64,000 bases of DNA. Source: Pseudomonadota bacterium. Lineage in GTDB: Bacteria; Pseudomonadota; Alphaproteobacteria; JBCCHK01. This document shows positions 17,570 to 46,474 of this stretch, piece after piece. Position 1 is the first letter of the stretch; every line of letters starts with the position of its first letter. Under the pieces are notes generated by a model. That model did not search any database. It saw only the letters and a list, made by a program, of their open reading frames with translations, and was not told the DNA's origin. The stretch spans positions 6,698 through 70,697 of the forward strand of contig JBCCHK010000008.1 of assembly GCA_039028835.1 (NCBI GenBank), in the 5' to 3' direction. Position numbers and translations under genes: made by a program.

Positions 17570-19099
17570 TTAAGGCGATATCAAGGATTGCCCAGTCATA
17601 GGAGCGCTGACCGGTAGGTTCATCATGCCAAGCAACGTCGGCGCGAGATCGGCCAGGCGGCCATCGCGCAGGCGGGCCTCGGGGCGGCCGGCTAAAATGA
17701 TTGGCACCGGGTTTGTGGTGTGGGTTGTGTGGGGCTTGCCGTCCTCGTCTTCCATGCATTCGCAATTGCCATGATCGGCGGTGACGATCATCTGGCCGCC
17801 CTGTTGCTCCAGAGCCTTCCACAACCGTCCCAGACACCGATCCACTGTTTCGCAGGCGGTGATTGCAGACTTGAGATCGCCGGTGTGGCCAACCATGTCC
17901 GGGTTGGCGTAGTTCACCACCAGCAAGTCCGGGGGGTCGTTGTTAAGGCGCGCGATGAGTTTATCGGTGAGGGGCACGGCAGACATATCCGGGGCCTGGT
18001 CGTAGGTGGCAACCTTGGGGGAGGGGATGAAAATCCGATCTTCCCGGGCGAAGGGTTCTTCCCGTCCCCCGTTTAAGAAGTAGGTCACGTGGGGATACTT
18101 TTCGGTTTCGGCAGCGCGCACCTGACTGAGCCCGGCTTTGGCGACGAGCTCGCCGAGCACACCCGTGAGATTCTGCGCGGCAAACAGCACCTGAAGCGGG
18201 AGGGATAGGCCGTAGTCAGTCATGGTCACAGCCAGGCCAAGCCGGGGGGCATCATCGATGGCAAACGCGTTAAACTTTGGATCGAGCAAGGCGGTGAGGA
18301 TTTGCCGCACCCGGTCTGCGCGGAAATTGCCACAAAGCACGCCCTCGCCTTTTTGCATGCCTTGGTAGTTCCCGATCACCGTGGGTTTGATGTGCTCATC
18401 GCTTAGGCCCATCTCGTAACCTTGGCTGAGGGCAGCCTCGGCCGTCTCGGCGGGTACGATCGTTTGACCGTCGCAGGCGCGCTTGCCTTGGGTTAAAGCG
18501 CGCCAGGCCAGAGCTGTACGATCCCAGCGTCGATCCCGATCCATGGCATAAAACCGCCCGATGACGGTGGCGATGGTGATCTTGGGGTCATCGGCGCAGA
18601 GCTGGATAAAGGGTTTTATGTCTTGCGCCGCCATGCTCGGCGGGCGATCCCGCCCATCGCTCCATAGGTGCAGGAAAACCCGGCATCCCTTGACCGCCAG
18701 AGCCTTGGCCAGCGCGATGAGGTGATCACTGTGGGCATGAACGCCGCCAGTGGAGGCGAGTCCCATCAGATGACAGACCCCGGCCTTAGCCAGGCGGGCT
18801 AAGAGCAGGTGATCGGCGAGGGTGCCGTCGGTCACTGCGGTGCTGATCCGTGGCAAGTCTTGCATCACCACCCGTCCGGCGCCGATGTTCAGGTGGCCAA
18901 CCTCGGAGTTGCCAAACTGACCCGCGGGGAGTCCCACGTCTTCACCGTGGGTCGTTAACAGGGCATGGGGACAGGTGTGCCAGAGGTGATCCATCGTTGG
19001 GGTGCGGGCAAGCAAAGGCGCGTTGCCGCGATGGTCTTTGCGGTAACCCCAGCCATCGAGAATACATAAGGTCACAGAAGAGGCGGGAGAGGACGGCAT
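17570..19099 (-). CDS. gpmI: 2,3-bisphosphoglycerate-independent phosphoglycerate mutase.
   Basis: The N-terminus 'VTLCILDGWG' and the metalloenzyme-domain motifs 'GNSEVGHLNIGAGR' and 'TADHGN' are present. Confidence 0.85.
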   Translation of the reverse strand: MPSSPASSVTLCILDGWGYRKDHRGNAPLLARTPTMDHLWHTCPHALLTTHGEDVGLPAGQFGNSEVGHLNIGAGRVVMQDLPRISTAVTDGTLADHLLLARLAKAGVCHLMGLASTGGVHAHSDHLIALAKALAVKGCRVFLHLWSDGRDRPPSMAAQDIKPFIQLCADDPKITIATVIGRFYAMDRDRRWDRTALAWRALTQGKRACDGQTIVPAETAEAALSQGYEMGLSDEHIKPTVIGNYQGMQKGEGVLCGNFRADRVRQILTALLDPKFNAFAIDDAPRLGLAVTMTDYGLSLPLQVLFAAQNLTGVLGELVAKAGLSQVRAAETEKYPHVTYFLNGGREEPFAREDRIFIPSPKVATYDQAPDMSAVPLTDKLIARLNNDPPDLLVVNYANPDMVGHTGDLKSAITACETVDRCLGRLWKALEQQGGQMIVTADHGNCECMEDEDGKPHTTHTTNPVPIILAGRPEARLRDGRLADLAPTLLGMMNLPVSAPMTGQSLISP

Positions 19100-19212: not shown

Positions 19213-19354
19213 GCTCAAGGGAATCATACCAGGAAAACGTCCCCGCGCATCCCCAAACGAGAAACCAGCGTCATAGTCGTGACGCAGTTATCCCAAATGT
19301 TTGCTTTGGCCCTACCCCTGGAAGGCCCCTTCACCGCACGATACCATAAGGCGT

Positions 19355-20623
19355 ATGAAAGATAAGCGTGAACAAGGATTTGGCTCTGTTGACCCCATCG
19401 AGGATGACTTTGACCTCTTTGGTGAGGAAACGGTGGCCATCAGCGGGTCCGTGCCGCGAGAGGAGCAGGCGGGCAAGTCTTCTAAGCGAGGGTTGTTCTT
19501 AGCCCTCGGCGGCGTCGTGCTGGGAGTGTTGATCCTGGGAGGTGGGTTTTTTGCCTATCAGCAGCTGAGTGCGCGCTGGGCACTCCAGGCTGAACTCCAG
19601 GCTATTGCTGAGCAAGCTGCCACAGGTGGGGGCACGACAGTTGTGTCTCAAGCAGACACCCAAGCGCAAGGCGGTCAGGACGCGGGACAAACTGGACAAG
19701 CCGTGCAAGATGGCTCTTCCTTGCGCGCCATCGTTGAGGCCCCTCCCGCGCAATGGGACGCGCCAGGAGAAAGCCAAAGCGGGGAAGTGGTTGCGGCGGT
19801 GTCCAGCCAGCCTCAGGTGACTGTAACCGGTCAAGGCGAGGTCTCCTCGGCTGTGATTACGGTGACCAACCAGCGGGATAACGACCGGGAGACCCGGCTC
19901 CGACAAGCGGCGGACACCGGCGAGCCAGAGGCCATGTTTGCGCTGGCGCAATACTATGACCAGGCGGCGCGCCCGGACTATGCCCGCGCCGCCCAATGGT
20001 ATCGCCGCGCGGGCGAGGCGGGGATCCCGGCGGCGGATTACCGTTTGGGGGAGATGCTACGGGAAGGGCGCGGGGTGGCGCGCAGTGATTCCGATGCTTT
20101 TGATGCGTTCTTGCGCGCCGGTCAGAGCGGCCACGATCAAGCGCAACTGGAGGTCGGGCGTGCCTATCGTCGCGGCTTCGGGGTGGATGCGGATCCGGTT
20201 CTGGCCGCGAACTGGTTTCAAATCGCACTGGGCAACGGCATGACCGATGCAGCGTTAGAGCTTGGCAAACTGTTTGAGGAAGGAGTCGGCGAGGGGGCGG
20301 ACTATGATGCAGCCTTGGGCTGGTACCAGTACGCCGCCCGTAGCGGCGTGATCGGTGCCCAGGCCGAGGCGGACCGGCTGGTGGCCCAGCAAGGTGCTCT
20401 GCCCCGCGAGGCCGAGCGTCCCCTCTCGGCGCAGGAGATTGCCGAGGTGCAGGCATTGCTCAATCAGCTGGGCTTTACGGCCGGCCCTGCCGATGGCCAG
20501 CCTGGCCCGCGTACCCGCCAGGCGATCAACGCCTTTAGTCAATCGCGCGGGGACGCGACCCAGGTGATCGACCGGAGCCTGTTGCGGAGTCTGCGCGCGG
20601 CGGCGCGCGAGGCAGCTTCCTAG
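19355..20623 (+). CDS. Membrane-anchored Sel1-repeat protein with a C-terminal peptidoglycan-binding domain.
   Basis: One TM helix is 'GLFLALGGVVLGVLILGGGFFAY'. There are repeated Sel1 units ('AAQWYRRAGEAG', 'ANWFQIALGNG', 'GWYQYAARSG') and a C-terminal PG_binding_1-like segment 'LNQLGFTAGPADGQPGPRTRQAINAFS'. Confidence 0.6.
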   Translation: MKDKREQGFGSVDPIEDDFDLFGEETVAISGSVPREEQAGKSSKRGLFLALGGVVLGVLILGGGFFAYQQLSARWALQAELQAIAEQAATGGGTTVVSQADTQAQGGQDAGQTGQAVQDGSSLRAIVEAPPAQWDAPGESQSGEVVAAVSSQPQVTVTGQGEVSSAVITVTNQRDNDRETRLRQAADTGEPEAMFALAQYYDQAARPDYARAAQWYRRAGEAGIPAADYRLGEMLREGRGVARSDSDAFDAFLRAGQSGHDQAQLEVGRAYRRGFGVDADPVLAANWFQIALGNGMTDAALELGKLFEEGVGEGADYDAALGWYQYAARSGVIGAQAEADRLVAQQGALPREAERPLSAQEIAEVQALLNQLGFTAGPADGQPGPRTRQAINAFSQSRGDATQVIDRSLLRSLRAAAREAAS

Positions 20624-20698
20624 CCTTAGTCCTGATCTCGCCCTTGATCTCGCCTCCTCCCTGAGCGGGTTCTCGATCCCCTTAATCTTCTTGATCCT

Positions 20699-20803
20699 CT
20701 TGATGAACTGGGGGACTATGGGGCGCGTGGGCCTGTAGTTCAGCGGTAGAACCCGCCGCTCATAACGGTGTTGTCGCAGGTTCGAATCCTGCCGGGCCCA
20801 CCA
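20699..20803 (+). repeat. Left copy of an ~105-bp imperfect direct repeat (tRNA-Met plus ~30 bp of leader). It brackets the nar island.
   Basis: 'tcttgatgaactgggggactatggggcgcgtgg...ttcgaatcctgccgggccc' is ~88% identical to the segment at 32710-32814. Confidence 0.7.
20729..20803 (+). tRNA. tRNA-Met (anticodon CAT), elongator type.
   Basis: A manually folded cloverleaf fits: acceptor GGGCCTG/CGGGCCC, U8A9, D-arm GTTC-AGCGGTA-GAAC, anticodon loop CTCATAA, T-arm GCAGG-TTCGAAT-CCTGC, discriminator A and encoded CCA. The paired 1:72 position argues against an initiator. Confidence 0.8.
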
Positions 20804-20822
20804 TGAAGCTTTTCAAAGAAGG

Positions 20823-20852
20823 TTTGTGCCTTAAAGTCCGCCATTCTCTGGC
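20823..20852 (+). terminator. Rho-independent terminator downstream of tRNA-Met.
   Basis: The hairpin CCGCCAttctcTGGCGG is followed by GGCTGTTTT. Confidence 0.5.
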
Positions 20853-21208
20853 GGGGCTGTTTTGTCGTTGACGGGTTTGCCCGGCAGAATCTAGCTATTT
20901 CTACGAATTTCATGATGATCTGGTGCCCATGCCGTTAAACGGCCCTCCCGCCAGGTTTATTCCTTTGCTGAAGTTGCGGCATTCATGGGGTGGCAGGTTG
21001 AGCGGATCATGATCTGCTGTCTGCGGTTTTAGCGTTATTGCACCTTTGTATGATCGGCGGATTGTGCAAGGAATAGAAAAGATATGATTTGAATAGTTTG
21101 TCGTAATTTTTATCGTATGTACAACGATACACGGTGTTGCCTAATCGATTATTATTTTATTGATATTTCTCCGTTCGTCTTTTCTATCTGCTCTATGTAT
21201 GCTGATTT

Positions 21209-22015
21209 TTAATAACGGATGCCTGCATGCGTAGGGCAGTGCGGGCAATCTTCCTTTGTTGCCAGGGTGCATTCATGCGCCGTATCCAAGTCGCAGAAAT
21301 GACAGAGCGCATAAGCGTCTTTCAAGCGAATTTTTTCACCTTTAATATCAATCCCCATTTTCTTGATTTGCGAAAGTGCACGGGAAAACGTTTCCGGGGT
21401 CATGCCCAGGTGATTGGCAATCGTTGATTTCTTAAATGGTAGCTCAAACTCCATGGTGTCTGAGTTTTGGGTGTCTGAGTTTTGGGTGTCTGAGTTTTGT
21501 TCCATGTGCTTTTGCAAGAAATAATATCCCACCCGTTGAACCGGTGATTTGATGGCCATGGCATCGATTTGGTGCATCGCGGTTTTATAGTGGTGTGTCA
21601 CAATTTTGAGCAGATTAGTCGCGAATTGATGATCTTGCAAAACGAATCTTTTAATAAACCCTCCTGGAATGAGCATGAGCTGGGCATCATCAACGACCTG
21701 AACCGCAATGGGTGACGGGCCACGCATAAAGAGCACAGCTTCCATACAAACCTCTCCTTGTCCAAGCATACGTATGGTGGCCTCACCACCATCTCTATTG
21801 GCTCTCAGCGTTCTTAACCGCCCTTCAACAATAAAATAGACATGCGTGGGTTGATCGCCTTGTTGTACGAGAAGGTGTCCGGCTTTGTAGTCCTGAAGGG
21901 TAGAGCTTTCCAGTATCTGCTGCAGAGCTTTCTCACTCAATCCTGTGAACAATTGAGGCTTTTTGCTGAGCTCAGCAAAGTTCCGAGGTTTCGCTATCGT
22001 GCTGTTTTTAATCAT
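21209..22015 (-). CDS. Crp/Fnr-family transcriptional regulator with a C-terminal cysteine cluster (NarR/Fnr-like).
   Basis: A cNMP-binding β-roll ('YFIVEGRLRT', 'GQGEVCMEAV') and an HTH ('KSTIANHLGMTPETFSRALSQ') are present. There are no N-terminal Cys residues. The C-terminal tail 'CHFCDLDTAHECTLATKEDCPHCP' has five Cys. A QNSDT tandem repeat sits in the linker. Confidence 0.75.
   Translation of the reverse strand: MIKNSTIAKPRNFAELSKKPQLFTGLSEKALQQILESSTLQDYKAGHLLVQQGDQPTHVYFIVEGRLRTLRANRDGGEATIRMLGQGEVCMEAVLFMRGPSPIAVQVVDDAQLMLIPGGFIKRFVLQDHQFATNLLKIVTHHYKTAMHQIDAMAIKSPVQRVGYYFLQKHMEQNSDTQNSDTQNSDTMEFELPFKKSTIANHLGMTPETFSRALSQIKKMGIDIKGEKIRLKDAYALCHFCDLDTAHECTLATKEDCPHCPTHAGIRY
21456..21500 (-). 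repeat. Perfect 15-bp tandem repeat ×3 (gtgtctgagttttgg) inside the Crp/Fnr gene. It encodes (QNSDT)3 in frame.
   Basis: Read directly: units at 21456-21470, 21471-21485 and 21486-21500, the last with one mismatch. Confidence 0.9.
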
Positions 22016-22063
22016 AGTTTATTGATTGCGCCACAAAAAAGATTCTTCTTAATTTGCATCAAC

Positions 22064-22077
22064 TTGATTTGAATCAA
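22064..22077. promoter_or_regulatory. Consensus FNR/Anr box TTGAT-N4-ATCAA in the divergent fnr-like/narK promoter.
   Basis: 'TTGATTTGAATCAA' is an exact match to the E. coli FNR consensus half-sites. It lies ~95 bp upstream of the narK start codon. Confidence 0.6.
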
Positions 22078-22145
22078 TTTCAACGTGCTCCAATCATGCC
22101 AAAAAACCTGTAATGATCAAGAAATAAGACGTATTTACAGGTCTT

Positions 22146-25094
22146 ATGCAAACAGGAGAGAGCAATGCCATGGTCACAAAGTCAGAACAAACACGGGCTC
22201 TGAGTTTAAGCACCTTTGCCTTTACCGCATGTTTTGCTGTTTGGACTATTTTTTCCATTATCGGCATTCAGATTAAGAGCGATTTGGGCCTCAATGATAC
22301 GCAGTTTGGCCTATTAGTCGCGACCCCGGTTCTCACGGGATCTTTAAGCCGTCTGCTTTTAGGGATTTGGGCAGACCAGTATGGCGGGCGCATTGTTTTT
22401 ACGCTGACAATGCTTGCCTCAGCATTATCGACGTGGCTTTTGTCCTCTGCCAACACTTACGAGATATTCTTGGTTGGCGCTTTGGGCGTTGGTTTGGCTG
22501 GCGGCGGGTTTGCCGTCGGCGTGGCCTATGTATCGCAATGGTATACGAAGGAAAAGCAAGGCACGGCCCTGGGGATTTTTGGTGTTGGTAATGTCGGGGC
22601 AGCCTTTACTAATTTTGGCGCGCCGTTTTTGTTAATCGCTTTAGGATGGGAAGGTACGGCCAGAGTCTACGCCATCATGCTTGCGATTGTTGCTCTCTTT
22701 TTCTTTGTCCTTACCAAGGATGATCCCAAGCTGGCGGTGCGCAAGAAAAATAAAGAAAAACCGCGCTCTGTTCTAGCGCAAATGGAGCCTTTGAAAAAAC
22801 TACAGGTCTGGCGGTTCTCGCTCTATTACTTTTTTGTTTTCGGGGCTTTTGTAGCGTTAGCGTTGTGGTTGCCGCGCTATTATGTCGGTGTTTATGGTCT
22901 GGATATTAAAATGGCCGGTATGTTGGCAGCCGCTTATGCGTTGCCGGGTTCGATTTTCCGAGCTCTGGGTGGATGGATGTCGGATCGCTACGGTGCACGG
23001 GCGGTCATGTATTGGACATTTATAGCTTGTGTGTTGGTTTGTTTTTTTCTTTCTTATCCCTATACGACCTATATCGTGCAAGGAGTTGAAGGGCCGATCC
23101 AGTTTGAGTTTGGCGTCAATCTGCCGACCTTTGTCGCGCTGACGGTTATTCTTGGTTTCTTTATGTCCTTGGGTAAAGCTGCGGTTTATAAGCATATTCC
23201 GGTTTACTACCCAGAGCATGTGGGTGCTGTCGGCGGGGTTGTCGGTTTGGTTGGTGGCTTGGGTGGCTTCTTCTTGCCGATTGTCTTTGGCTTTATGAAT
23301 GATGTGATTGGTGTCTGGACGAGCTGTTTTATGATGCTCTTCGGTATTACGGCATTTGCCCTTTTGTGGATGCATGCATCGATCCTGTTTATGGAAGGCA
23401 CAATCGAGAAACCGAAGTTCTTGCCGGAGCTTAAACTTTCTAAAGCAAAAGAAATAGAAAGTGTTGACAAAGCCACTGAGTTTAAGAATCAAGGGCTGGA
23501 AGACTGGAACCCTGAAAATGAAGAACAGTGGGCGCGTTGGGGTAAGAATGTTGCGTATCGCAATCTCTGGATCTCTATTCCTTCGTTGCTGTGTGGTTTT
23601 GCGGTCTGGCTTTATTGGGGCATCATCACGGTACAGATGCTTAATCTGGGTTTCCCGTTTGCCAAGGCCGATCTCTTCTCACTGATGGCAATCGCGGGCC
23701 TTTCAGGCGCGACATTACGTATCCCTTCGACCTTCTTTATTCGATTGGCGGGCGGGCGCAATACAATTTTTATGACGACGGCGCTATTGATTGTGCCAGC
23801 ACTGGGCGCGGGAATTGCGTTACAAGATCCAAACACACCGCTTTGGATATTCCAGGTATTAGCGCTGCTTTCTGGATTTGGCGGTGGTAACTTTGCATCT
23901 TCTATGTCCAATATCAGCTTTTTCTTTCCGAAGAAAAAGCAAGGTTTGGCATTAGGTCTCAATGCAGGCTTGGGCAACTTTGGTGTCACCACGATGCAGA
24001 TTTTGATCCCGTTGGTGATGACATTCGGTGTTTTTGGTGGCGCACCGATGGTGCTAGAAAGTACAAGCGGTACGCTAATTGGCAAGATTTCTGCCGGCAC
24101 CGATACTTATATTCACAATGCCGGTTTTGTTTGGTTGGTTTTCTTGATCCCCCTTTCTATCGCGGCATGGCTTGGGATGGATAATATCAAGGCCAAACAC
24201 GTGTCGCCGGGACTGGGCGCGCCGCCAATGGCATTTTTCCAGATTGGTGTCATGTTGCTCATCGGCTTAGGTGTTGGCGCCGCCGGGTTGTGGTTAATGT
24301 TGCCAGAAAGTGCCAATGGCTCTGGTTTTGATGTGAGCAAATATATTGTTCTGCCCTTGGTAATTGCCGCGACCGTGATGATACTCAAGATGTTACCAGG
24401 TGACATTGGTAGCAGCCTGAAACGTCAGTATCAAATTTTTAAGCATCCGCATACATGGGTGATGACCGTAATCTATACCATGACTTTCGGTTCCTTCATC
24501 GGGTTTGCTGCATCCTTTCCATTGGCGATCAAAGTGGTGTTTGGTTTCCAGCATGTTGCTGGCCCGGATGGCGTTGTAACCCATGATCTGGCTAACCCAA
24601 ACGGACCAAGTGCTTTGATGTTTGCCTGGATGGGGCCATTTATCGGCGCGTTGATTCGTCCTGTGGGTGGCTGGATTTCTGATCGGATGGGTGGGGCCCT
24701 GGTAACGCAGCTTTGCTCGATCGTGATGGTCGGTTCTACGCTGGGTGCTGCGTATTACATGAAACTTGCTTACGCTTCCGCCACGCCGGAAATCTATTTT
24801 TTGCCGTTCTTGGTGTTATTCCTTTTGCTTTTCACAGCAACCGGGATTGGCAACGGGTCCACGTTTCGCACCATCGCAATCGTGTTTAACAAGGAGCAGA
24901 CTGGCCCGGTACTTGGCTGGACCTCTGCGGTGGCTGCTTATGGTGCCTTCATTATTCCAAAAGTGTTGGGTGAGCAAATCAAGCTCACCACACCGGAAAT
25001 GGCGCTCTATGGCTTTGCAGCTTTCTATGCTCTTTGCGTGATTTTGAATTGGTTTGTTTATCTGCGCCCTGGTGCGAAACACAAAAACCCTTAA
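22146..25094 (+). CDS. narK: Fused two-domain nitrate/nitrite transporter NarK1-NarK2 (tandem MFS).
   Basis: It is 982 aa with about 24 TM segments in two MFS halves. An RBS-supported start is likely at 22170 (aggaga-N9-ATG). It lies immediately upstream of narG. Confidence 0.8.
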   Translation: MQTGESNAMVTKSEQTRALSLSTFAFTACFAVWTIFSIIGIQIKSDLGLNDTQFGLLVATPVLTGSLSRLLLGIWADQYGGRIVFTLTMLASALSTWLLSSANTYEIFLVGALGVGLAGGGFAVGVAYVSQWYTKEKQGTALGIFGVGNVGAAFTNFGAPFLLIALGWEGTARVYAIMLAIVALFFFVLTKDDPKLAVRKKNKEKPRSVLAQMEPLKKLQVWRFSLYYFFVFGAFVALALWLPRYYVGVYGLDIKMAGMLAAAYALPGSIFRALGGWMSDRYGARAVMYWTFIACVLVCFFLSYPYTTYIVQGVEGPIQFEFGVNLPTFVALTVILGFFMSLGKAAVYKHIPVYYPEHVGAVGGVVGLVGGLGGFFLPIVFGFMNDVIGVWTSCFMMLFGITAFALLWMHASILFMEGTIEKPKFLPELKLSKAKEIESVDKATEFKNQGLEDWNPENEEQWARWGKNVAYRNLWISIPSLLCGFAVWLYWGIITVQMLNLGFPFAKADLFSLMAIAGLSGATLRIPSTFFIRLAGGRNTIFMTTALLIVPALGAGIALQDPNTPLWIFQVLALLSGFGGGNFASSMSNISFFFPKKKQGLALGLNAGLGNFGVTTMQILIPLVMTFGVFGGAPMVLESTSGTLIGKISAGTDTYIHNAGFVWLVFLIPLSIAAWLGMDNIKAKHVSPGLGAPPMAFFQIGVMLLIGLGVGAAGLWLMLPESANGSGFDVSKYIVLPLVIAATVMILKMLPGDIGSSLKRQYQIFKHPHTWVMTVIYTMTFGSFIGFAASFPLAIKVVFGFQHVAGPDGVVTHDLANPNGPSALMFAWMGPFIGALIRPVGGWISDRMGGALVTQLCSIVMVGSTLGAAYYMKLAYASATPEIYFLPFLVLFLLLFTATGIGNGSTFRTIAIVFNKEQTGPVLGWTSAVAAYGAFIIPKVLGEQIKLTTPEMALYGFAAFYALCVILNWFVYLRPGAKHKNP

Positions 25095-25108
25095 GAGGAT
25101 ATAAAAAG

Positions 25109-28100
25109 ATGAGCTATTTCATCGACCGTATTTCATACTTTGCTCAAAGCCGTGAAAAGTTTTCTGATGGCCATGGCGTCACCACACAAGAAAACCGAGT
25201 TTGGGAAGAGGCGTACCGTGGTCGCTGGGCGCATGACAAAATTGTGCGCTCTACCCATGGCGTGAACTGTACAGGCTCTTGCTCTTGGAAAATCTATGTC
25301 AAAAACGGATTAATTACGTGGGAAACGCAGCAAACAGATTATCCGCGAACACGTCCCGGTTTGCCAAACCATGAGCCACGGGGCTGTTCACGTGGGGCAA
25401 GCTATAGTTGGTATATCTATGCTGCTAATCGCCTGAAATATCCGTTGATCCGCAAGCGTCTTTTGAAGATGTGGCGGCGCATGAAAGCGCAGCATGGCGA
25501 TCCTGTAGAGACATGGAAAGCCATTCAAGCCGATCCGATTTTGCGCACTGAATATCAAAAACTTCGTGGGCGGGGCGGATTTGTTCGTGCTGAGTGGGAT
25601 GAGGTGAACGAAATCATTGCAGCGTCCAACATTCACACAATTAAGGAGCATGGGCCGGATCGTGTTATCGGATTTTCCCCCATTCCGGCCATGTCGATGG
25701 TGTCGTATGCGGCTGGCTCGCGCTACCTTTCGTTGATTGGTGGTGTATGTATGAGTTTTTATGACTGGTACTGCGATTTGCCGCCAGCCTCGCCGATGAC
25801 ATGGGGTGAACAAACCGACGTTCCGGAAAGCGCAGATTGGTATAACTCAGGCTTTATTATGATGTGGGGCTCTAACGTTCCGCAAACAAGAACGCCTGAT
25901 GCACACTTTATGACTGAGGCGCGCTATAAGGGGACGCAAGTGGTCACAATCACGCCGGATTATTCGGAAGCCTCTAAGTTTGGCGATATCTGGCTCAACC
26001 CGAAACAGGGTACGGATGCGGCCGTTGGCATGGCGATGGGGCATGTGATTCTCAAAGAGTTCCACCTTGAAAATACGTCTGAATATTTTGACGACTATAC
26101 CCGTCAATACTCCGATTTCCCCTTCCTTGTGAAACTAGAGAAACGCGACGGGCGTTATGTGCCGGGTCGTATGGTGCGCGCTTCTGATTTTGAGGGCGCT
26201 TTGGGGCAAAAAAACAACCCTCAATGGAAAACGGTTTGCCTGGATGAAAAAACAGGCACTCTCGTTGTTCCCACCGGTTCCATCGGTTTTCGCTGGGGTG
26301 AAGATGAGAAGAAAACCGGGCAATGGAACATTGCGCCCCTCGATTCCAAAACCAAGAAAGAGATTCGTCCGCAAAAGACTTTGCTCGGCTCTCATGATGA
26401 AGTTCTCACTGTGGGCTTCCCATACTTTGCCAACGCTGAGCATGAGCATGGTTATTTTGCAGGTAATCAACAAGATGAGATTTTAGATCGTCATCTGCCC
26501 GTCAAGTATCTGGAGATTAATGGCGAGAATGTACCAGTTGTGACGGTCTTTGATCTGGTTTGTGCGAATTACGGTATCGCTCGTGAGGGGCTTGGTGGCG
26601 ATAATGTGGCCTCACGCTACGATGAGAACGTGCCGTATACGCCGAAATGGCAGGAACGGATCACCGGTGTTCCCGCGGATAACATTACCTACGTCGCGCG
26701 TGCCTTTGCTGATAATGCGGATAAGACCAAAGGTAAATCGATGATTATCATCGGCGCGGCGATGAATCACTGGTATCACATGGATATGAATTATCGAGCA
26801 TGCATCAACATGCTCGTATTCTGTGGCTGTGTTGGTCAATCGGGCGGTGGTTGGTCGCATTACGTAGGGCAGGAAAAACTGCGACCACAGACCGGATGGC
26901 TGCCGCTTGCGTTCGCGCTGGACTGGAACCGTCCACCGCGCCAGCAAAACTCAACCTCGTTCTTTTATGCGCATACAGATCAGTGGCGTTATGAAACGTT
27001 GGGCGTGGATGAGATTTTGTCGCCGACAGCAGACAGATCGCGCTGGCAAGGTTCGCTGATTGATTGCAATATCCGCGCCGAGCGTATGGGTTGGTTGCCC
27101 TCCGCACCACAGCTGGAGGAAAACCCGATTGGGCTTGTCAAGAAGGCTGGCAAGAAAAATCCAGTCGAGTATGTCACAGAGCGTCTCTCCCGTGGCGATT
27201 TGCGCATGTCCTGCGAGGATCCAGATCATCCAGCAAACTGGCCGCGTAATTTATTTGTCTGGCGTTCGAACCTCTTGGGTTCTTCGGGTAAAGGGCATGA
27301 GTATTTCCTCAAGCATTTTCTAGGGACACAGCACGGTGTGCAGGGCAAGGACCTCGGTGAAGAAGGAAAAAGCGCGTCCAGGGATGTCGTCTGGCATGAT
27401 AAAGCGCCGGAGGGAAAACTTGATCTGGTGGTCACCCTCGACTTTCGGATGTCTACGACATGTATGTATTCTGATATCGTTCTACCGACGGCGAGTTGGT
27501 ATGAGAAGAATGATCTCAATACCTCGGACATGCACCCTTTTATTCACCCGCTGTCTAAGGCCATTGACCCAGTATGGCAGAGCCGCAGTGACTGGGATAT
27601 TTACAAAGGATTAGCAAAGAAGTTCTCCGAGCTTGCACCAGGTCATCTGGGGATCGAAAAAGAAATCGTCCTCACGCCCATCCAGCATGATACACCGGGC
27701 GAACTTGCGCAAAACGATGTGAAAGAGTGGCGTAAAGGGCAGTGCGATCTTGTGCCCGGCGTAACCGCGCCTGCCATGAAAGTGGTGGAGCGAGATTATC
27801 CGGCAACGTATGAGCGTTTTACCTCTCTTGGCCCGCTCATGGAAACGTTGGGTAATGGCGGTAAGGGCATTGGTTGGAATACCAGCCAGGAGGTGGCTTT
27901 CCTGAAAGCTCTGAATGGTGAAAATAGACAAAATTGCGCAAACATCCAAAGTGATATTGATGCTTGCGAAACGGTGATGACCTTAGCGCCGGAAACCAAT
28001 GGTGATGTGGCTGTCAAGGCGTGGGAGGCTTTGGGTAAAATTACGGGCCGTGACCATACCCATTTGGCGCTGCCGAAAAAAGAAGAAAAAATCCGCTTCC

Positions 28101-28849
28101 ACGACATTCAGGCGCAACCGCGTAAAATTATCTCATCACCCACATGGAGTGGGCTGGAATCCGAGCACGTTTGTTATAATGCAGGTTATACCAACGTGCA
28201 CGAATATATCCCTTGGCGCACACTGACCGGGCGACAACAGCTTTACCAGGATCACCCGTGGATGCTGGATTTTGGCGAGGGACTGGTTTCCTATAAACCG
28301 CCGATCAATACGGCAACGATCCACACCATGCTCGAAAAGCATGGTGGTGAGGATACCCCGCATGTGACGCTCAACTTTATTACACCGCACCAGAAATGGG
28401 GTATTCACTCGACCTATTCTGACAATTTACACATGCTCACGCTTTCCCGTGGCGGGCCAATTGTTTGGATGAGTGAAAACGATGCTAAAAAAGTAGCGAT
28501 CAAAGATAATGACTGGGTTGAAGTCTTCAATACCAATGGGGCCATTACCGCGCGGGCAGTGGTATCTCAACGTGTCAATGACGGGATGCTGCTCATGTAT
28601 CACGCACAGGAAAAAATCGTCAATACACCGGGCAGTAAAATCACCAACGCCCGTGGCGGCATTCATAACTCTGTGACACGGGCAACGGTTAAGCCGACTC
28701 ATATGATCGGGGCGTATGCACAACAATCATACGGCTTTAACTATTATGGCACAGTGGGATCAAACCGTGATGAGTTCGTGATTGTACGCAAGATTGAAGA
28801 TCAGGATATCGACTGGATGGAAGAACCATTAAAGGCGGTAGAACAATGA
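25109..28849 (+). CDS. narG: Respiratory nitrate reductase alpha subunit.
   Basis: The N-terminal FeS0 motif 'HGVNCTGSCSWKIY' (H-x3-C-x3-C) is present, and the ~1246-aa size fits. The start was moved to 'MSYFIDR' with the RBS aagagga. Confidence 0.9.
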   Translation: MSYFIDRISYFAQSREKFSDGHGVTTQENRVWEEAYRGRWAHDKIVRSTHGVNCTGSCSWKIYVKNGLITWETQQTDYPRTRPGLPNHEPRGCSRGASYSWYIYAANRLKYPLIRKRLLKMWRRMKAQHGDPVETWKAIQADPILRTEYQKLRGRGGFVRAEWDEVNEIIAASNIHTIKEHGPDRVIGFSPIPAMSMVSYAAGSRYLSLIGGVCMSFYDWYCDLPPASPMTWGEQTDVPESADWYNSGFIMMWGSNVPQTRTPDAHFMTEARYKGTQVVTITPDYSEASKFGDIWLNPKQGTDAAVGMAMGHVILKEFHLENTSEYFDDYTRQYSDFPFLVKLEKRDGRYVPGRMVRASDFEGALGQKNNPQWKTVCLDEKTGTLVVPTGSIGFRWGEDEKKTGQWNIAPLDSKTKKEIRPQKTLLGSHDEVLTVGFPYFANAEHEHGYFAGNQQDEILDRHLPVKYLEINGENVPVVTVFDLVCANYGIAREGLGGDNVASRYDENVPYTPKWQERITGVPADNITYVARAFADNADKTKGKSMIIIGAAMNHWYHMDMNYRACINMLVFCGCVGQSGGGWSHYVGQEKLRPQTGWLPLAFALDWNRPPRQQNSTSFFYAHTDQWRYETLGVDEILSPTADRSRWQGSLIDCNIRAERMGWLPSAPQLEENPIGLVKKAGKKNPVEYVTERLSRGDLRMSCEDPDHPANWPRNLFVWRSNLLGSSGKGHEYFLKHFLGTQHGVQGKDLGEEGKSASRDVVWHDKAPEGKLDLVVTLDFRMSTTCMYSDIVLPTASWYEKNDLNTSDMHPFIHPLSKAIDPVWQSRSDWDIYKGLAKKFSELAPGHLGIEKEIVLTPIQHDTPGELAQNDVKEWRKGQCDLVPGVTAPAMKVVERDYPATYERFTSLGPLMETLGNGGKGIGWNTSQEVAFLKALNGENRQNCANIQSDIDACETVMTLAPETNGDVAVKAWEALGKITGRDHTHLALPKKEEKIRFHDIQAQPRKIISSPTWSGLESEHVCYNAGYTNVHEYIPWRTLTGRQQLYQDHPWMLDFGEGLVSYKPPINTATIHTMLEKHGGEDTPHVTLNFITPHQKWGIHSTYSDNLHMLTLSRGGPIVWMSENDAKKVAIKDNDWVEVFNTNGAITARAVVSQRVNDGMLLMYHAQEKIVNTPGSKITNARGGIHNSVTRATVKPTHMIGAYAQQSYGFNYYGTVGSNRDEFVIVRKIEDQDIDWMEEPLKAVEQ

Positions 28850-30453
28850 AAATACGTGCGCAAATAGGCATGGTGCTTAATCTCGATAAATGTATTGGGT
28901 GTCACACCTGCTCAGTCACTTGTAAGAATGTCTGGACGTCTCGCGAGGGCATGGAATATGCCTGGTTCAATAATGTTGAAACCAAGCCTGGTGTTGGCTT
29001 TCCTAAGCAATGGGAGAATCAGGAACAATGGCATGGCGGGTGGCACCGCACAAAGAGTGGAAAAATCCATCCCAAACAAGGGGGACGCTGGCGCATTTTG
29101 GCGAAGATTTTTGGCAATCCAGATATGCCAGAAATTGATGATTATTACGAGCCGTTTACTTTCGATTATGACCATCTTCAAAACGCCCCTGAGTCAAAAA
29201 ATATGCCAACGGCACGGCCACGATCCTTAGTGTCCGGGCAGCGCATGGAGAAGATTGAATGGGGGCCAAATTGGGAGGAAATTTTAGGCACTGAGTTTGA
29301 ACACCGGCGCAAGGATTATAATTTTAAGAATATGGAAGAGCAGATGTATGGAGAGTTTGAAAACACCTTCATGATGTATCTTCCGCGCTTGTGTGAACAT
29401 TGTCTGAATCCAACCTGTGTGGCGTCCTGTCCATCGGGCTCTATTTATAAACGTGAAGAAGATGGTGTGGTTCTGGTCGATCAGGATAAATGTCGCGGCT
29501 GGCGCATGTGCGTATCGGGCTGTCCGTATAAGAAGATTTATTATAACTGGAAATCCGGTAAGGCAGAAAAGTGCACGTTATGCTATCCGCGTCTTGAAAA
29601 CGGAGAGCCAACGGTATGTTCAGAGACCTGTGTCGGGCGCATTCGATATCTGGGTGTGATTTTATACGATGCAGACCGTATCGAGCAGGCCGCAAGCGTT
29701 GCCAATGAGGAGGATCTTTATCAGGCACAGTGCAACATCTTCCTTGATCCCCATGATGCAAAGGTCATAGCCCAGGCACGAAAAGACGGCATTCCTGGGA
29801 ACTGGATTGAGGGGGCGCAAACCTCACCAGTGTACAAAATGGCGATAGACTGGAAAGTAGCCTTCCCGTTGCATCCTGAATATAGAACTTTACCGATGGT
29901 TTGGTATGTTCCGCCGCTGTCTCCCGTGCAAAATGCAATCCAAACAGGAAAACTACCGACAAAAGGCATTTTGCCTGATGTGGATAAAATGCGCATTCCG
30001 GTGAAATATTTGGCCAATATGCTCACCGGCGGCAAGGAAGAACCGGTTGTTTTGGCTCTTAAACGCTTGATGGCGATGCGTCATTTTATGCGAGGCGAGT
30101 TGACCCAGGGCAAGGCCGATCCGAAGGTATTACAAGAGGTCGGCCTTACTGCGTCTTTGGTGAAGGATATGTACAAAACGATGGCACTTGCTAACTATGA
30201 AGATCGCTACGTGATACCGACCGGTCACCGTGAGGAAACGCTGGATGCTTACGGCGAAAGCGGTGCTTGCGGCTTTAGCTTCGGCAATGGTTGTGCTTTG
30301 CATTCCCATAGTGATGTTGATCTCTTTGAAAATCCAATGAACTGGCGCGGTCGTAGTGCTTCTGGCAAAGACAACCGTGTGAATACATTGTTCACCCAAG
30401 GAAAAACAAGCACATCAGGCGGCTGCGGTAGCGGCGGCTGTGGTTGTAATTAG
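28846..30453 (+). CDS. narH: Respiratory nitrate reductase beta subunit.
   Basis: The N-terminus 'MKIRAQIGMVLNLDKCIGCHTCSVTCKNVW' is near-identical to the enterobacterial NarH start. Multiple Cys ferredoxin clusters are present. There is an unusual Cys/Gly-rich C-terminal extension. Confidence 0.9.
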   Translation: MKIRAQIGMVLNLDKCIGCHTCSVTCKNVWTSREGMEYAWFNNVETKPGVGFPKQWENQEQWHGGWHRTKSGKIHPKQGGRWRILAKIFGNPDMPEIDDYYEPFTFDYDHLQNAPESKNMPTARPRSLVSGQRMEKIEWGPNWEEILGTEFEHRRKDYNFKNMEEQMYGEFENTFMMYLPRLCEHCLNPTCVASCPSGSIYKREEDGVVLVDQDKCRGWRMCVSGCPYKKIYYNWKSGKAEKCTLCYPRLENGEPTVCSETCVGRIRYLGVILYDADRIEQAASVANEEDLYQAQCNIFLDPHDAKVIAQARKDGIPGNWIEGAQTSPVYKMAIDWKVAFPLHPEYRTLPMVWYVPPLSPVQNAIQTGKLPTKGILPDVDKMRIPVKYLANMLTGGKEEPVVLALKRLMAMRHFMRGELTQGKADPKVLQEVGLTASLVKDMYKTMALANYEDRYVIPTGHREETLDAYGESGACGFSFGNGCALHSHSDVDLFENPMNWRGRSASGKDNRVNTLFTQGKTSTSGGCGSGGCGCN

Positions 30454-30464
30454 GGAATAGGACA

Positions 30465-31172
30465 ATGAAGACATTAAAAGTTTTGGGCGTTCTGCTGACG
30501 TATCCCTCGGCCGATTTGATGAAAGCTTTACCGGAGTTGCAGAAAATCCTGAAAAAAGAAAAATGGTTGTCAGAAAAATCGTTAAAAACGCTTGGCCATT
30601 TGATGGATTGGATGAGTGCGCAGGACTTGCTAGATTTACAAGAAGAGTTTGTTGCGCTGTTTGATCGTACGCCGTCGCTTTGTTTACATTTGTTTGAGCA
30701 TGTCCATGGCGACTCGCGTGATCGCGGGCAGGCTCTGGCTGATCTCTCAGAGATTTATAAAGACGCAGGTCTGCTTATTAATACTGAAGAAATGCCTGAT
30801 TTTCTGCCGCTGTTTTTAGAGTATCTTTCTGTGATTGATGCGCAAGAGTCACGCCAGAACTTGGGAGAGATTGCCAATGTTCTGGGTGTTTTAGCCAGGC
30901 GTTTGAACAGTAGGCGCTCACCTTATGCTTGTGTGTTTGAAGGGCTCATTGAGGCGGCGGCCCGTAAGCCTGATAAAAAGGCTGTTGAAGCGGCCCTTAA
31001 AGATGCGACCGGTAAGGCAGGGACGTTTGAGGAGCTGGATCAATCATGGGAAGAGCAGAACGCTTTCGAGAACTCCTTACAAACCATAGAGCAGAATATG
31101 AGCGGCGGTTGTCCAAAGGCCGAGGCCATGTTGGCGCAGATGAACCTACCAAAAGAAAACGAGGAGGTATAG
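30465..31172 (+). CDS. narJ: Nitrate reductase molybdenum cofactor assembly chaperone.
   Basis: Its position between narH and narI, its size and the TorD-like N-terminus support the call. Confidence 0.8.
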   Translation: MKTLKVLGVLLTYPSADLMKALPELQKILKKEKWLSEKSLKTLGHLMDWMSAQDLLDLQEEFVALFDRTPSLCLHLFEHVHGDSRDRGQALADLSEIYKDAGLLINTEEMPDFLPLFLEYLSVIDAQESRQNLGEIANVLGVLARRLNSRRSPYACVFEGLIEAAARKPDKKAVEAALKDATGKAGTFEELDQSWEEQNAFENSLQTIEQNMSGGCPKAEAMLAQMNLPKENEEV

Positions 31173-31176
31173 AGCT

Positions 31177-31851
31177 GTGGATTTCTTTTTATTTCAGATT
31201 TTCCCTTATATTGCGATCGCTGTTTTTGCGTTGGGGAGCATTCTGCGGTTTGACCGTGATCCTTATTCGTGGCGCTCAAAATCTAGCCAGCTTCTAAGAC
31301 GAAAACAATTCATTGTTGGTAGTATTCTGTTTCATTGCGGGATTATCACGATTTTGCTCGGGCATATTGTGGGGCTACTAACCCCGATTGCGGTGTTTGA
31401 TGCTGTGGGCATTTCCCATGGTGTAAAGCAGATTTTGGCGATGACGGCTGGCGGGATTGCGGGAGTATTTTGCTTTATCGGGCTGGTTATGTTGCTTCAT
31501 CGTCGTTTGGTTGATCCGCGTATTCGTGCGACCAGTTCTTTTTCGGATATTGCTGTATTGGTTTTGCTTTTGGCGCAGCTTTGTCTGGGGATGTATACGA
31601 TTACGGAATCGATGAAGCATTTAGACGGGCATGAAATGGTTAAGTTCATGGAATGGGCCCAGCATATCGCAACACTCCGTGGTGGGGCTCATCATTATGT
31701 TTCTGATGTGGCGTGGGTATTCAAAGTGCACCTGGTGCTGGGGATGTTTATTCTCTTTGTCTGGCCCTTCACAAGGCTTGTACATGTGTTCAGTGCACCG
31801 GTCGGATTTGTGTTCCGGCCTTATCAAATTGTTCGTAAAAGGGAGATTTAG
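31177..31851 (+). CDS. narI: Respiratory nitrate reductase gamma subunit (cytochrome b).
   Basis: It is 224 aa with five TM helices carrying the conserved His ligands. Confidence 0.85.
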   Translation: MDFFLFQIFPYIAIAVFALGSILRFDRDPYSWRSKSSQLLRRKQFIVGSILFHCGIITILLGHIVGLLTPIAVFDAVGISHGVKQILAMTAGGIAGVFCFIGLVMLLHRRLVDPRIRATSSFSDIAVLVLLLAQLCLGMYTITESMKHLDGHEMVKFMEWAQHIATLRGGAHHYVSDVAWVFKVHLVLGMFILFVWPFTRLVHVFSAPVGFVFRPYQIVRKREI

Positions 31852-31854
31852 GAG

Positions 31855-32616
31855 ATGGTTGCTGCGCCCAGTATTAGCGTAAATGGTATCAAAATTACAC
31901 CTCAGCAAATTAATGCGGAGGCGCAATATCATCCGGCTGAAAGTTTTTTTAGTGCCCAATATGAAGCCACGCAGGCTTTGGTCGTACGGGAGCTTTTAAT
32001 CCAGCGGGCGGTTGATTTGGGGCTTTGTCAACACGACGCAGGGATCAAAAATCCGGATGACGTTTTGGTAGCATTGTTTGAAAAAGAAATAGTGCTTCCT
32101 GAAGCAGATGAGCAAACATGCCGGCGTTTTTATGAGCAGAATAAAAAGCGATTTTTTACTGCACCCTTATTCGAAGCAGCGCACATCTTATACCCAGCCC
32201 CGCCGGGGGATAAGCAGGCCCGCGACGCTGCCTTAGAAAAAGCACAAAAAGCGTTGGTGCGGATTATGCAAAAGCCAGAGTGTTTTAAGACAATTGCGAG
32301 AACAGAGTCGGCGTGTTCATCTGCCAAAATGGGCGGGCATCTTGGGCAGATCACCAAAGGGCAGACGGCGCCCGCTTTCGAGGCAGCATTGCTTGATATG
32401 CAAGAGGGGGATCTTTCCGAACAGCCCCTAGCCAGTGAGTTTGGCTATCATTTGATTAAGGTTCATAAACGTCTTGAAGGCAAACAATTGCCTTTTGGTG
32501 CCGTGCATGAATGGATTGTCGATTATCTGCAGCAGCAAAGCTGGCAGAGGGCTTTTCGTCAGTATGTTCAGCTTTTGGCAGGACAGGCCAAGGTAAGCGG
32601 ATTCCAGCCAGGCTGA
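31855..32616 (+). CDS. PpiC-type (parvulin) peptidyl-prolyl cis-trans isomerase, nar-associated.
   Basis: A parvulin domain ('SAKMGGHLGQITKGQTAPAFEAA', 'FGYHLIKV') is present. From memory, this is the same position as the PpiC-type gene after narI in Pseudomonas nar clusters. Confidence 0.65.
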   Translation: MVAAPSISVNGIKITPQQINAEAQYHPAESFFSAQYEATQALVVRELLIQRAVDLGLCQHDAGIKNPDDVLVALFEKEIVLPEADEQTCRRFYEQNKKRFFTAPLFEAAHILYPAPPGDKQARDAALEKAQKALVRIMQKPECFKTIARTESACSSAKMGGHLGQITKGQTAPAFEAALLDMQEGDLSEQPLASEFGYHLIKVHKRLEGKQLPFGAVHEWIVDYLQQQSWQRAFRQYVQLLAGQAKVSGFQPG

Positions 32617-32709
32617 CAGTCCGCTTGTACAGTAATACTTGCACGATGTGATCGCCGCTTTTTGAGCAGGGTTTCCTACGTGGGGATTTTCTGGCCTTGT
32701 ACCTGATTC

Positions 32710-32814
32710 TCTTAATGAACAGGGGAACGATGGGGCGCGTGGCCTTGTGGTTCAGCGGTAGACCCCGCCGCTCATAACGGTGTTGTCGTAGGTTCGAATC
32801 CTGCCGGGCCACCC
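32710..32814 (+). repeat. Right copy of the ~105-bp direct repeat (tRNA-Met-like plus leader) bracketing the nar island.
   Basis: It aligns to 20699-20803. Confidence 0.7.
32741..32814 (+). tRNA. tRNA-Met(CAT)-like sequence, probably a degenerate copy or pseudo-tRNA.
   Basis: It is ~90% identical to the tRNA at 20729-20803 and has the same CAT anticodon loop. However, the acceptor stem (GGCCTTG vs CGGGCCA) has a G1:A72 and a C3:C70 mismatch, the D-stem has a mismatch, and there is no encoded CCA. Confidence 0.45.
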
Positions 32815-33109
32815 GTGTGCTACCACCCGCAAAAAATCACAAAAAATCATAAAAAAAGACGCAAAAACGGCCAAAATCCCGCAAATACTGTGAATGGCGC
32901 GTTGGTAGGGGCGCGGGTCGGTGTATACTGGCACCGGAAGGTCCTTATGGTCGTTTTTTCTCGAAAAGCCTTCACAAAAACCGTTCAAGAAAAAATGGCG
33001 ATAACGACGGAGAATCAGCCGATAATCCGATCCTCATGCGGCTTGACCTTCCTCGCCGCGCACCTCGCCCTTGCTTCATCCCAAAACGATGCGGGTTTCC
33101 TGCCCATGA

Positions 33110-35617
<2,508 letters not shown>

Positions 35618-42539: not shown

Positions 42540-43397
42540 ATGAGTACACAAATCAACAAATGGTTCATCGAAGAGTTTCAAACAGATGTCCATGCCGCTT
42601 ATCAACAGCAAGGGGCGCGTCTGCGTCATACCGTGAGAACAAAAAATAATGTCCGCGGCGAAAAAACACACTTCAACACAGCAGGTATCGTCGGTGTTGG
42701 CGATAAAGCACGCGGCGGTAACGTCCCCATTATCACCGGCGGCCGAGGCCGAGTCGAGTGCACCCTGATTTCAAAATATGGCGGCGACTATGTGGAAGAT
42801 ATCGATGAGCTGAAAACCAATATCGATGAAAAACAAGTCATCGCCATGTCTTTTGCTTGGGCGCATGGTCGCCATACGGACAATTTGATTATCGAGGCGA
42901 TCACCCAAGACACCAATACGCACCGGGTCAACGATGCAAACATCGCCACAGGCCTTAAGTCTGCCCATGTTCAAGAGGCGCTGGAAAAACTCAACCAAGC
43001 TGATGTGCCGGATGACGGCGCGCGCACGGCACTTGTCACGCCCCATGCGTGGGAAGAGCTTTTGGCTATCGATGCCTTTGCCAAGGCGGATTATATCGGC
43101 AAGGAGTCCTTGCCGTGGCTTGGTGGCTCGGAAGCCAAACGGTGGCGCAACTGTCTGTGGATGATGCATACCGGTTTGCCGATCAATACGGAAAACAAAG
43201 TCGCAAGCTGTGTGATTTTTCACAAAACTGCGGTCGGTCATGCGATTGGCAAGGAACTGGAAGCACAATGGTCTTGGGAAAATACAAAATCCGCATGGTT
43301 TTTGAATACCCGCATGTTGCAAGGGGCCTGTCTGATCGATCCTAAAGGTGTGGTGAAGATCCATGTCAAAAACAATCAACCCATCAGCACCTCATAA
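42540..43397 (+). CDS. Phage major capsid protein (T7 gp10-like).
   Basis: The C-terminal blocks 'VIFHKTAVGHAIGKEL' and 'MLQGACLIDPKGVVKIHV' parallel T7 gp10 'LFMHRSAVGTVKLRDL' and 'AMGHGGLRPEAAGAVVFKV', as recalled from memory. Confidence 0.6.
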   Translation: MSTQINKWFIEEFQTDVHAAYQQQGARLRHTVRTKNNVRGEKTHFNTAGIVGVGDKARGGNVPIITGGRGRVECTLISKYGGDYVEDIDELKTNIDEKQVIAMSFAWAHGRHTDNLIIEAITQDTNTHRVNDANIATGLKSAHVQEALEKLNQADVPDDGARTALVTPHAWEELLAIDAFAKADYIGKESLPWLGGSEAKRWRNCLWMMHTGLPINTENKVASCVIFHKTAVGHAIGKELEAQWSWENTKSAWFLNTRMLQGACLIDPKGVVKIHVKNNQPISTS

Positions 43398-43421
43398 CGA
43401 TCTATAGAAAGGACCTAATCA

Positions 43422-43667: not shown

Positions 43668-43755
43668 CACATACAAAAACACAAAGGGGGAGGGAGAATC
43701 GGGTCTTTATCTCCTTACCTGATATCTTCCTCCCCCGACGTGCCCACCGGAGTCG

Positions 43756-44331: not shown

Positions 44332-44336
44332 CCATC

Positions 44337-46067: not shown

Positions 46068-46069
46068 TC

Positions 46070-46465: not shown

Positions 46466-46474
46466 CGGCCTACG

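Follow-up and report, generated by a model that had tools for sequence, protein, structure and literature searches.

A low-GC nitrate respiration module, probably acquired horizontally, between two leader-tRNA(CAU) units in an alphaproteobacterial metagenome-assembled genome

The question raised by contig JBCCHK010000008.1 of the alphaproteobacterial metagenome-assembled genome (MAG) GCA_039028835.1 is how a complete set of nitrate respiration genes, lower in G+C content (GC) than the DNA on either side, came to lie between two copies of a tRNA gene. The window analysed is a 64-kb stretch of this contig, and all coordinates are window positions. An earlier note on this DNA had described the block as a classic tRNA-targeted genomic island that has lost its integrase. 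The explanation preferred here, to which a probability of about 70% may be assigned, is that an 11.9-kb nitrate module from a lower-GC alphaproteobacterial donor lies between two units, each composed of a leader and a tRNA gene, and that the distal tRNA copy has decayed.

Profiles of GC and codon usage along the window showed the block to be atypical in both overall GC and GC at third codon positions (GC3). The GC of positions 20804-32739 is 0.485, compared with 0.569 in the left flank (1-20728) and 0.544 in the right flank (32815-64000). The low-GC block proposed in the earlier note is thus borne out, with profile matches for all seven of the genes listed there, while the GC of 58-62% that had been attributed to the flanks is in fact 54-57%. 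In the seven island genes GC3 is 0.46-0.53, versus a mean of 0.62 in the 33 other open reading frames (ORFs) (Mann-Whitney p = 2e-5). The tetranucleotide signature of the island correlates at 0.75-0.82 with the non-phage flanks of the host, at 0.92 with the homologous module of another MAG (GCA_021776025.1, contig L082), and at 0.84 with the non-homologous DNA that flanks the module in L082. The first tRNA gene ends at 20803, and the decrease in GC and the foreign genes come after it.

Protein identities were determined by searching a database of 5.8 billion proteins. Host GyrB and GpmI each have a 100% match to themselves, both from one NCBI MAG contig of 151,449 bp that also encodes MEM7047217.1 to MEM7047222.1, followed by matches of no more than 60% and 58% identity, respectively. 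Because neither protein has a close match, the host is best regarded as a member of an unsampled, deep-branching alphaproteobacterial lineage of roughly 56% GC. A scan of genome collections with GyrB peptide patterns, which gave at least 600 matches, found no close relative, the best locus being 57% identical among the matches listed, and exact-sequence look-up of the TPR-like ORF to the left of the island and of the NCBI GyrB returned no record of either. A tRNA(CAT) gene is absent upstream of gyrB in the 40 gyrB loci scanned, at a distance where synteny is uninformative.

The island proteins have much closer relatives. The best database matches of NarG are 82-89% identical, and L082 encodes counterparts of all seven island proteins at 78-89% identity (82% for the regulator, although it evolves fast, 85% for NarK, 80% for NarJ and 78% for the isomerase); the DNA is 76.4% identical from 21225 to 32608, that is, from the stop codon of the regulator gene to the end of the isomerase gene. 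Among the genomes sampled, GCA_021776025.1 has the closest relative of the module, and GCA_024275935.1 and GCA_053999695.1 are also carriers of the closest modules. A Micavibrio MAG protein falls within the 90%-identity cluster of this best NarG match, and the named members of the NarG clade are MAGs of uncultured Alphaproteobacteria, Micavibrio, Sneathiella and Rhodospirillales. Beta- and gammaproteobacterial Nar sequences, and those of cultured alphaproteobacteria, are only 67-71% identical. Plasmid-borne NarG proteins of cultured alphaproteobacteria (Tistrella, Rhizobium, Paracoccus) are at 67-70%, no closer than those of Shewanella or Variovorax, and the comparison of NarG with plasmids found no close plasmid-borne copy (maximum 70%). 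The six nearest modules are in genomes of 37-48% GC, where module GC is equal to or slightly above that of its flanks; in this host it is 6-8 points below. The nearest neighbours of NarG and NarH are thus alphaproteobacterial, from lineages whose GyrB is at most 60% identical to that of the host, and both the atypical composition and this phylogenetic discordance agree with the earlier description of the block as foreign. Very probably, then, the island was acquired horizontally, and the donor would be an alphaproteobacterial rather than a gammaproteobacterial lineage, of lower GC than the host, because the nearest Nar matches are from low-GC alphaproteobacterial MAGs.

A gammaproteobacterial donor, implied by the earlier note on account of a NarH N-terminus nearly identical to enterobacterial and pseudomonad sequences, was considered and rejected. 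NarH (MEM7047217.1) does align over its full length with Escherichia coli NarH (1Q16_B), with its cysteine motifs kept and its N-terminus almost identical, but the near-identity exists because the iron-sulfur domain is universally conserved; the N-terminus is equally conserved everywhere and is no clue to origin.

In other genomes the same module has different surroundings. In L082, L084 and L086 it lies among moeA, moaA, moaCB, moaD, moaE, mobA and nnrS. Because the genomic contexts of the relatives vary, the cassette appears to relocate repeatedly. A gene of the ppiC type is located 3′ of narI in every relative examined (L082, L083, L084, L086 and L116, and L117 as a fragment). In L083 (17769-18945) an IS3-family transposase and a tRNA-Gln gene directly follow the narK-narGHJI-ppiC block, and in L116 (1-15707) the block is situated between addAB-like and M16 peptidase genes, with the regulator and cofactor genes absent.

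The island is bounded by a direct repeat. ARAGORN identified exactly two tRNAs in the window, both with a CAT anticodon and both on the plus strand (20729-20803 and 32740-32814), with Rfam tRNA scores of 66.0 bits for the proximal and 42.8 bits for the distal copy (gathering score 29). A blastn alignment, obtained through an identical contig (L001, described below), pairs 20692-20798 with 32704-32810 over 107 bp at 90.65% identity (E = 1e-36), in agreement with the imperfect direct copy of about 105 bp, leader included, previously noticed at the right end. The repeat is composed of a 37-bp 5′ leader and the tRNA gene. On the left, the leader (20692-20728, aligned to 32704-32740) precedes an intact tRNA(CAU) gene with an encoded CCA (20729-20803); on the right, also on the plus strand, the leader copy (32704-32740, aligned to 20692-20728) precedes a full-length tRNA(CAU) copy that is probably a decayed pseudo-tRNA (32741-32814). 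Neither homology beyond the repeat nor a third, partial tRNA copy was found, local alignments being at the level of shuffled sequence. The mismatches are spread unevenly (binomial p ~0.04): five in the 37 positions of the leader, four in tRNA bases 1-25, one in bases 26-65 and three in bases 66-75, so that the core, spanning the anticodon arm through the T arm, has only one mismatch in 40. A degenerate pattern of the leader had zero matches in JGI metagenome contigs, and the leader appears to be lineage-specific.

A scan of metagenomes for the tRNA core yielded 28 loci that share the anticodon and T arms, none of which is syntenic with this locus. In all 28 the acceptor stem is GGGCCYG paired with CGGGCCC, as it is in the proximal tRNA, the sequence of which is the consensus of these homologues and contains no non-canonical pairs. 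The proximal copy would be the working gene and the distal copy, next to gyrB, a pseudogene, as discussed further below. No obvious integrase was noticed among the ORFs downstream of the 28 metagenomic tRNAs, on inspection by eye and without profiles, and the tRNA core had zero matches in the viral contigs of IMG/VR.

How the foreign DNA arrived is less clear than that it is foreign. The slightly favoured account, put forward tentatively, is that it landed between leader-tRNA units already duplicated in tandem, because the repeat consists of the leader and the complete gene with changes concentrated in the acceptor stem and the D stem, and because the distal copy is most altered at its 3′ end, exactly where the model of an attachment (att) site expects a functional host end. 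The principal alternative is that the element's own tyrosine recombinase inserted it into the tRNA gene, the repeat being attL and attR and the integrase having been lost later; a variant would be Campbell-type homologous recombination in which a circular element brought along the tRNA region of this lineage in full. Genes for tRNA are standard integration targets (PMC9897764, citing Williams 2002), and islands with a tRNA and its duplication but no integrase have been described (PMC7656271). The island starts right after the 3′ end of the intact tRNA, a direct repeat with tRNA sequence bounds it, and the nearly invariant core of the repeat resembles an att core. To this extent the idea of a classic tRNA-targeted island holds, but the repeat is the whole gene with its leader and not a 3′ att fragment, whereas integration into a tRNA normally leaves a complete copy and a second that is partial (PMC9897764). 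An att scar has no need of a 5′ leader or of the 5′ half of the gene, yet the distal copy retains both; the leader being lineage-specific by appearance, the element would have had to capture it earlier from the same lineage; and the distal 3′ end, which should be the functional end of the host gene, has three changes in ten bases. The absence of the tRNA core from the IMG/VR viral contigs also counts against an integrase-type element, as does the failure to detect an integrase remnant: neither an integrase nor a transposase was detected in the seven island ORFs, all of which have nar functions, or in the other window ORFs scanned, and the spacers of 405 bp and 87 bp at the ends of the island contain no ORF of at least 60 residues and no Pfam match at E ≤ 1. 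The earlier statement that no integrase remains agrees with these results for the DNA scanned. On balance, integration by a lost recombinase is a possible explanation, though a rather doubtful one.

The favoured account, insertion between tandem units, has the distal tRNA as a decayed duplicate; the alternative that it is a second functional gene, a diverged paralogue and neither a scar nor a pseudogene, was considered in light of its structure. The distal copy has two changes in the 5′ strand of the acceptor stem, and its 3′ acceptor strand is short by one base (seven bases against six), leaving U5 unpaired in a bulge. The D stem contains a U11-C24 mismatch, the 3′ end is CCC instead of CCA, the minimum-energy fold is not a cloverleaf, and the Rfam score is 23 bits under that of the intact copy. 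The acceptor- and D-stem variants occur in none of the 28 homologues, among which no variant of the distal copy is matched except one C-to-T change, and a terminator scan found no terminator downstream. In favour of function, the copy is called by ARAGORN and scores above the Rfam gathering threshold, there is hardly any change in its anticodon and T arms, the replacement of G3-C70 by C3-G70 in the Infernal alignment has a compensatory appearance, and an encoded CCA is also absent in 4 of the 28 homologues. On balance a second functional tRNA is unlikely, and the distal copy is probably a pseudogene.

A further scenario is that RecA of the host swaps a respiratory cassette in and out of a tRNA locus by using whole leader-tRNA units as portable homology arms, with no dedicated recombinase, and that the 40-base core of the pseudo-tRNA is kept either as a recombination substrate or as a processing or regulatory element of gyrB; this would be quite improbable.

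Several points weigh against the arrival of a foreign module between duplicated units. The uneven distribution of mismatches in the repeat, with 1 in the 40 core bases and 13 counted outside them, could reflect a recombination core or gene conversion. A short att-like repeat of the tRNA 3′ end was looked for at the right end of the island and not found, and integrases and transposases likewise went undetected. The databases contain no relative of the host in which an empty site or a presence/absence polymorphism could be seen, and the actual donor is also unsampled, the best nucleotide identity being only 76%. The function in nitrate respiration is predicted from homology. Finally, positions 20565-20774, which include the beginning of the intact tRNA gene, are bridged only by the MAG contig, since Logan contigs end at 20564 and start again at 20775.

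The last point bears on the assembly. A Logan contig from SRR22824298 (L001; 12,520 bp) is 100% identical to 20775-33294, and extends from within the intact tRNA gene (its last 29 bases) through the whole island and the pseudo-tRNA into the start of gyrB. The Logan contig with the left flank (L087, found via GpmI) ends at 20564. Logan assemblies use words of k = 31. Both L087 and L001 end near the intact tRNA. The start of L001 fits a branch in a k = 31 graph, if another sequence in the sample shared the 3′ end of the tRNA and differed immediately beyond it; this could be a further tRNA copy or a variant of the locus free of the island.

The arrangement is probably not an assembly artefact. 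A chimera would have arisen if a contig of another organism, of about 48% GC, had been spliced into the host contig at the conserved tRNA sequence. The sequence does derive from a MAG, the tRNA core is identical across many unrelated organisms and sequences of this kind cause misjoins, and the Logan contigs fail to bridge the left junction. However, the independent assembly runs without a break, at 100% identity, through the right junction (ppiC, 87 bp, leader copy, pseudo-tRNA, gyrB), which is in unique sequence, where the adjoining leader copy resembles only the host's own leader; the two tRNA copies have no shared identical run longer than 25 bases, which is under the Logan word length; and the flanks on the two sides agree in tetranucleotide signature (r = 0.94). 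A chimera is accordingly judged highly improbable. Least credible of all is a native cluster, with nar passed on by vertical descent and its low GC a matter of local heterogeneity in composition: the Nar proteins have their nearest homologues in alphaproteobacteria, to which the host also belongs, the nar genes are all intact with a regulator of their own, and there is further low-GC DNA at 42-53 kb, but lineages with GyrB at most 60% identical to the host's have Nar proteins at 78-89% identity, NarG of cultured alphaproteobacteria is only 67-70% identical, nar GC tracks or slightly exceeds genome GC in the six other genomes, and the other low-GC stretch is itself phage-like.

The foreign module favoured here encodes a complete respiratory nitrate reductase with its transporter. 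NarG, NarH, NarJ, NarI and NarK were assigned by NCBIfam equivalog profiles against curated cut-offs, and all five genes are on the plus strand. The first gene after the divergent promoter region (22170-25094) matches the NarK family profile (TIGR00886, 466 bits, cut-off 312) in two stretches of a single ORF, and its product is therefore a fused NarK1-NarK2 nitrate/nitrite transporter. It is followed by narG for the catalytic molybdopterin subunit (25109-28849; TIGR01580, 2099 bits, cut-off 1084), narH for the iron-sulfur subunit (28846-30453; TIGR01660, 952 bits, cut-off 524), narJ for the assembly chaperone (30465-31172; TIGR00684, 118 bits, cut-off 59) and narI for the membrane cytochrome b subunit (31177-31851; TIGR00351, 263 bits, cut-off 106). 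The final gene of the module (31855-32616, plus strand) encodes a PpiC-type peptidyl-prolyl isomerase, for which the NCBIfam matches (peptidyl-prolyl isomerase and NifM) are below threshold and the Pfam Rotamase families were matched by the identical product in L001. Every island ORF is full length relative to its homologues, and NarG contains the H-x3-C-x3-C motif of the FS0 cluster (HGVNCTGSC at residue 50), which is present along with the NarH cysteine motifs and the FNR boxes described below. The window showed none of the moa, moe and mob genes for the molybdenum cofactor; the cofactor would have to come from host genes outside the island.

The remaining island gene, transcribed divergently from narK (21209-22015, minus strand), encodes a regulator of the Crp/Fnr family. 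Its NCBIfam matches (FtrB, FixK and FnrL) are all below threshold, and the identical product encoded by L001 gave matches to the Pfam domains cNMP_binding and HTH_Crp_2. Between the regulator gene and narK, the divergent promoter region of 154 bp contains two adjacent FNR-type boxes (22049-22077; TTAATTTGCATCAA and TTGATTTGAATCAA), one of them perfect, out of three matches to the FNR-type pattern in the whole window, a total that is no excess over chance. The regulator is without an N-terminal cysteine cluster and instead has C-x2-C-x7-C followed by C-x2-C near its C-terminus (21209-21300). This motif, CHFCDLDxAHEC...CPHC, is also kept in the L082 orthologue, and it is reminiscent of the iron-sulfur site at the C-terminus of Bacillus Fnr rather than of the site in E. 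coli Fnr. A perfect tandem repeat of three 15-bp units within the regulator gene (21455-21499) encodes a 10-residue (NSDTQ)n insertion that the L082 orthologue is without.

From family membership, the Fnr-like regulator would probably sense oxygen through its C-terminal cysteine motif and may bind the two predicted FNR boxes before narK to switch the operon on. The fused transporter is predicted to bring nitrate in and take nitrite out, and NarGHI to couple quinol oxidation to nitrate reduction. Maturation of the enzyme would depend on NarJ and probably on the PpiC-type isomerase.

The gene arrangement has counterparts in other proteobacteria. The Paracoccus-type locus (P. pantotrophus, P. denitrificans) comprises narR, a fused narK and narGHJI. 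It shares with the island a divergent FNR-family regulator without an N-terminal cysteine cluster, a single fused narK with narGHJI next to it, and FNR-type boxes in the intergenic region; in contrast, the island regulator has a conserved C-terminal cysteine motif with only sub-threshold FtrB, FixK and FnrL matches, and the island NarG is only ~68% identical to the Paracoccus plasmid copies. Pseudomonas aeruginosa, with narK1K2GHJI and a PpiC-type gene, has the same order of narK, narG, narH, narJ, narI and ppiC-type genes, but its NarK proteins are separate and its regulation is by NarXL, Anr and Dnr, whereas the island has a fused narK and a dedicated Fnr-like gene, and beta- and gammaproteobacterial NarG proteins are ~68-71% identical to that of the island. 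The nitrate respiration element of Thermus thermophilus is located on a conjugative plasmid and moves between strains. It is likewise a nitrate reductase block with its own transporter and regulator, while the island is chromosomal and compact and lacks transfer functions. Thermus plasmids that carry NarG are present among the plasmid matches of the island NarG.

As for the mode of insertion, tRNA-associated islands and integrative and conjugative elements share with this island a foreign composition, insertion 3′ of a tRNA gene and a tRNA-containing repeat at both ends (PMC9897764), and differ from it in that the repeat here is the full gene plus a 37-bp leader, with copies 9% diverged, and in that integrase, excisionase and transfer genes were not detected in the island. 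In Bradyrhizobium cosmicum, a photosynthesis gene cluster is bounded by a tRNA and a tandem duplication, a hallmark of islands, and island-prediction software did not report it (PMC7656271). Both are metabolic clusters bounded by a tRNA and its duplication, but in B. cosmicum the duplication is partial and relatives could be compared, whereas here it is full length with a leader and there are no relatives. Both the horizontal transfer of nar and the existence of tRNA-linked islands that lack an integrase are already well documented (PMC7656271, PMC9897764), and only the shape of the repeat is unusual in an otherwise well-known kind of event.

Acquisition of one compact, self-regulated cassette is probably the route by which this deep-branching alphaproteobacterial lineage gained anaerobic nitrate respiration, and the cassette also circulates among low-GC alphaproteobacteria, including the Micavibrio MAG, in several genomic contexts. 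Two warnings for annotation follow from the locus: an additional "tRNA-Met" annotation can represent a decayed duplicate, and a low-GC block flanked by tRNAs is not automatically an island of the integrase type. Neither changes the current view of nar mobility and tRNA-linked islands.

The label of the tRNA itself had to be reconsidered. The CAT anticodon agrees with the previous designation as tRNA-Met, but the specificity for methionine is uncertain. The tRNA(CAU) is not an initiator, because it has a G1-C72 pair and is without three G-C pairs in the anticodon stem. In E. coli, the tRNA that it matches best over the full length is a prophage gene annotated as tRNA-Ile with a CAT anticodon (72% identity, E = 2). 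It may be tRNA-Ile2, the lysidine-modified isoleucine tRNA, rather than tRNA-Met. The pairs C4-G69 and C5-G68 are also present in this tRNA; E. coli TilS recognises pairs at these positions, C4-G69 and C5-G68.

Between the intact tRNA and the regulator gene is a non-coding spacer of 405 bp (20804-21208) without an ORF of at least 60 residues, along which GC drops from ~0.5 to 0.37 and which has no homology to L082. It includes, on the plus strand and outside the repeat, a terminator-like hairpin with a 7-bp stem (five G-C pairs) and a T-run, detected by the terminator scan (20837-20865). To the left of the island are an ORF for a TPR/Sel1-like protein (19301-20623) and then gpmI (17570-19099), and to the right is gyrB (33125-35617). 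Of the two flanking genes named previously, gyrB is indeed adjacent to the island, but hisS (6506-7906) is 13 kb away, with the TPR/Sel1-like ORF and gpmI in between. Between the pseudo-tRNA and gyrB, A-tracts recur at a phase of ~10 bp (32826-32880; CAAAAAATCA CAAAAAATCA TAAAAAAAGA CGCAAAAACG GCCAAAATCC), followed by a promoter-like site upstream of gyrB (32902-32929). The phased A-tracts may represent intrinsically curved DNA at a supercoiling-sensitive gyrB promoter.

The second low-GC stretch of the window (42540-48721, ~0.50) has the appearance of a phage or gene-transfer-agent remnant. It codes for a capsid protein (PF19821), a lysozyme of family GH108 that has a peptidoglycan-binding domain, a three-transmembrane (3TM) holin of the gene-transfer-agent type and an M78 peptidase beside an HTH regulator, as well as ORFs of 191 and 576 residues without a Pfam match; an integrase was not seen there. 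Further to the right is a 781-residue ORF without a Pfam match (52168-54513), the C-terminal half of which is of low complexity and enriched in Q, A, S and R, and a spike of AT-skew (0.47) at 53-54 kb is due to this half of the ORF.

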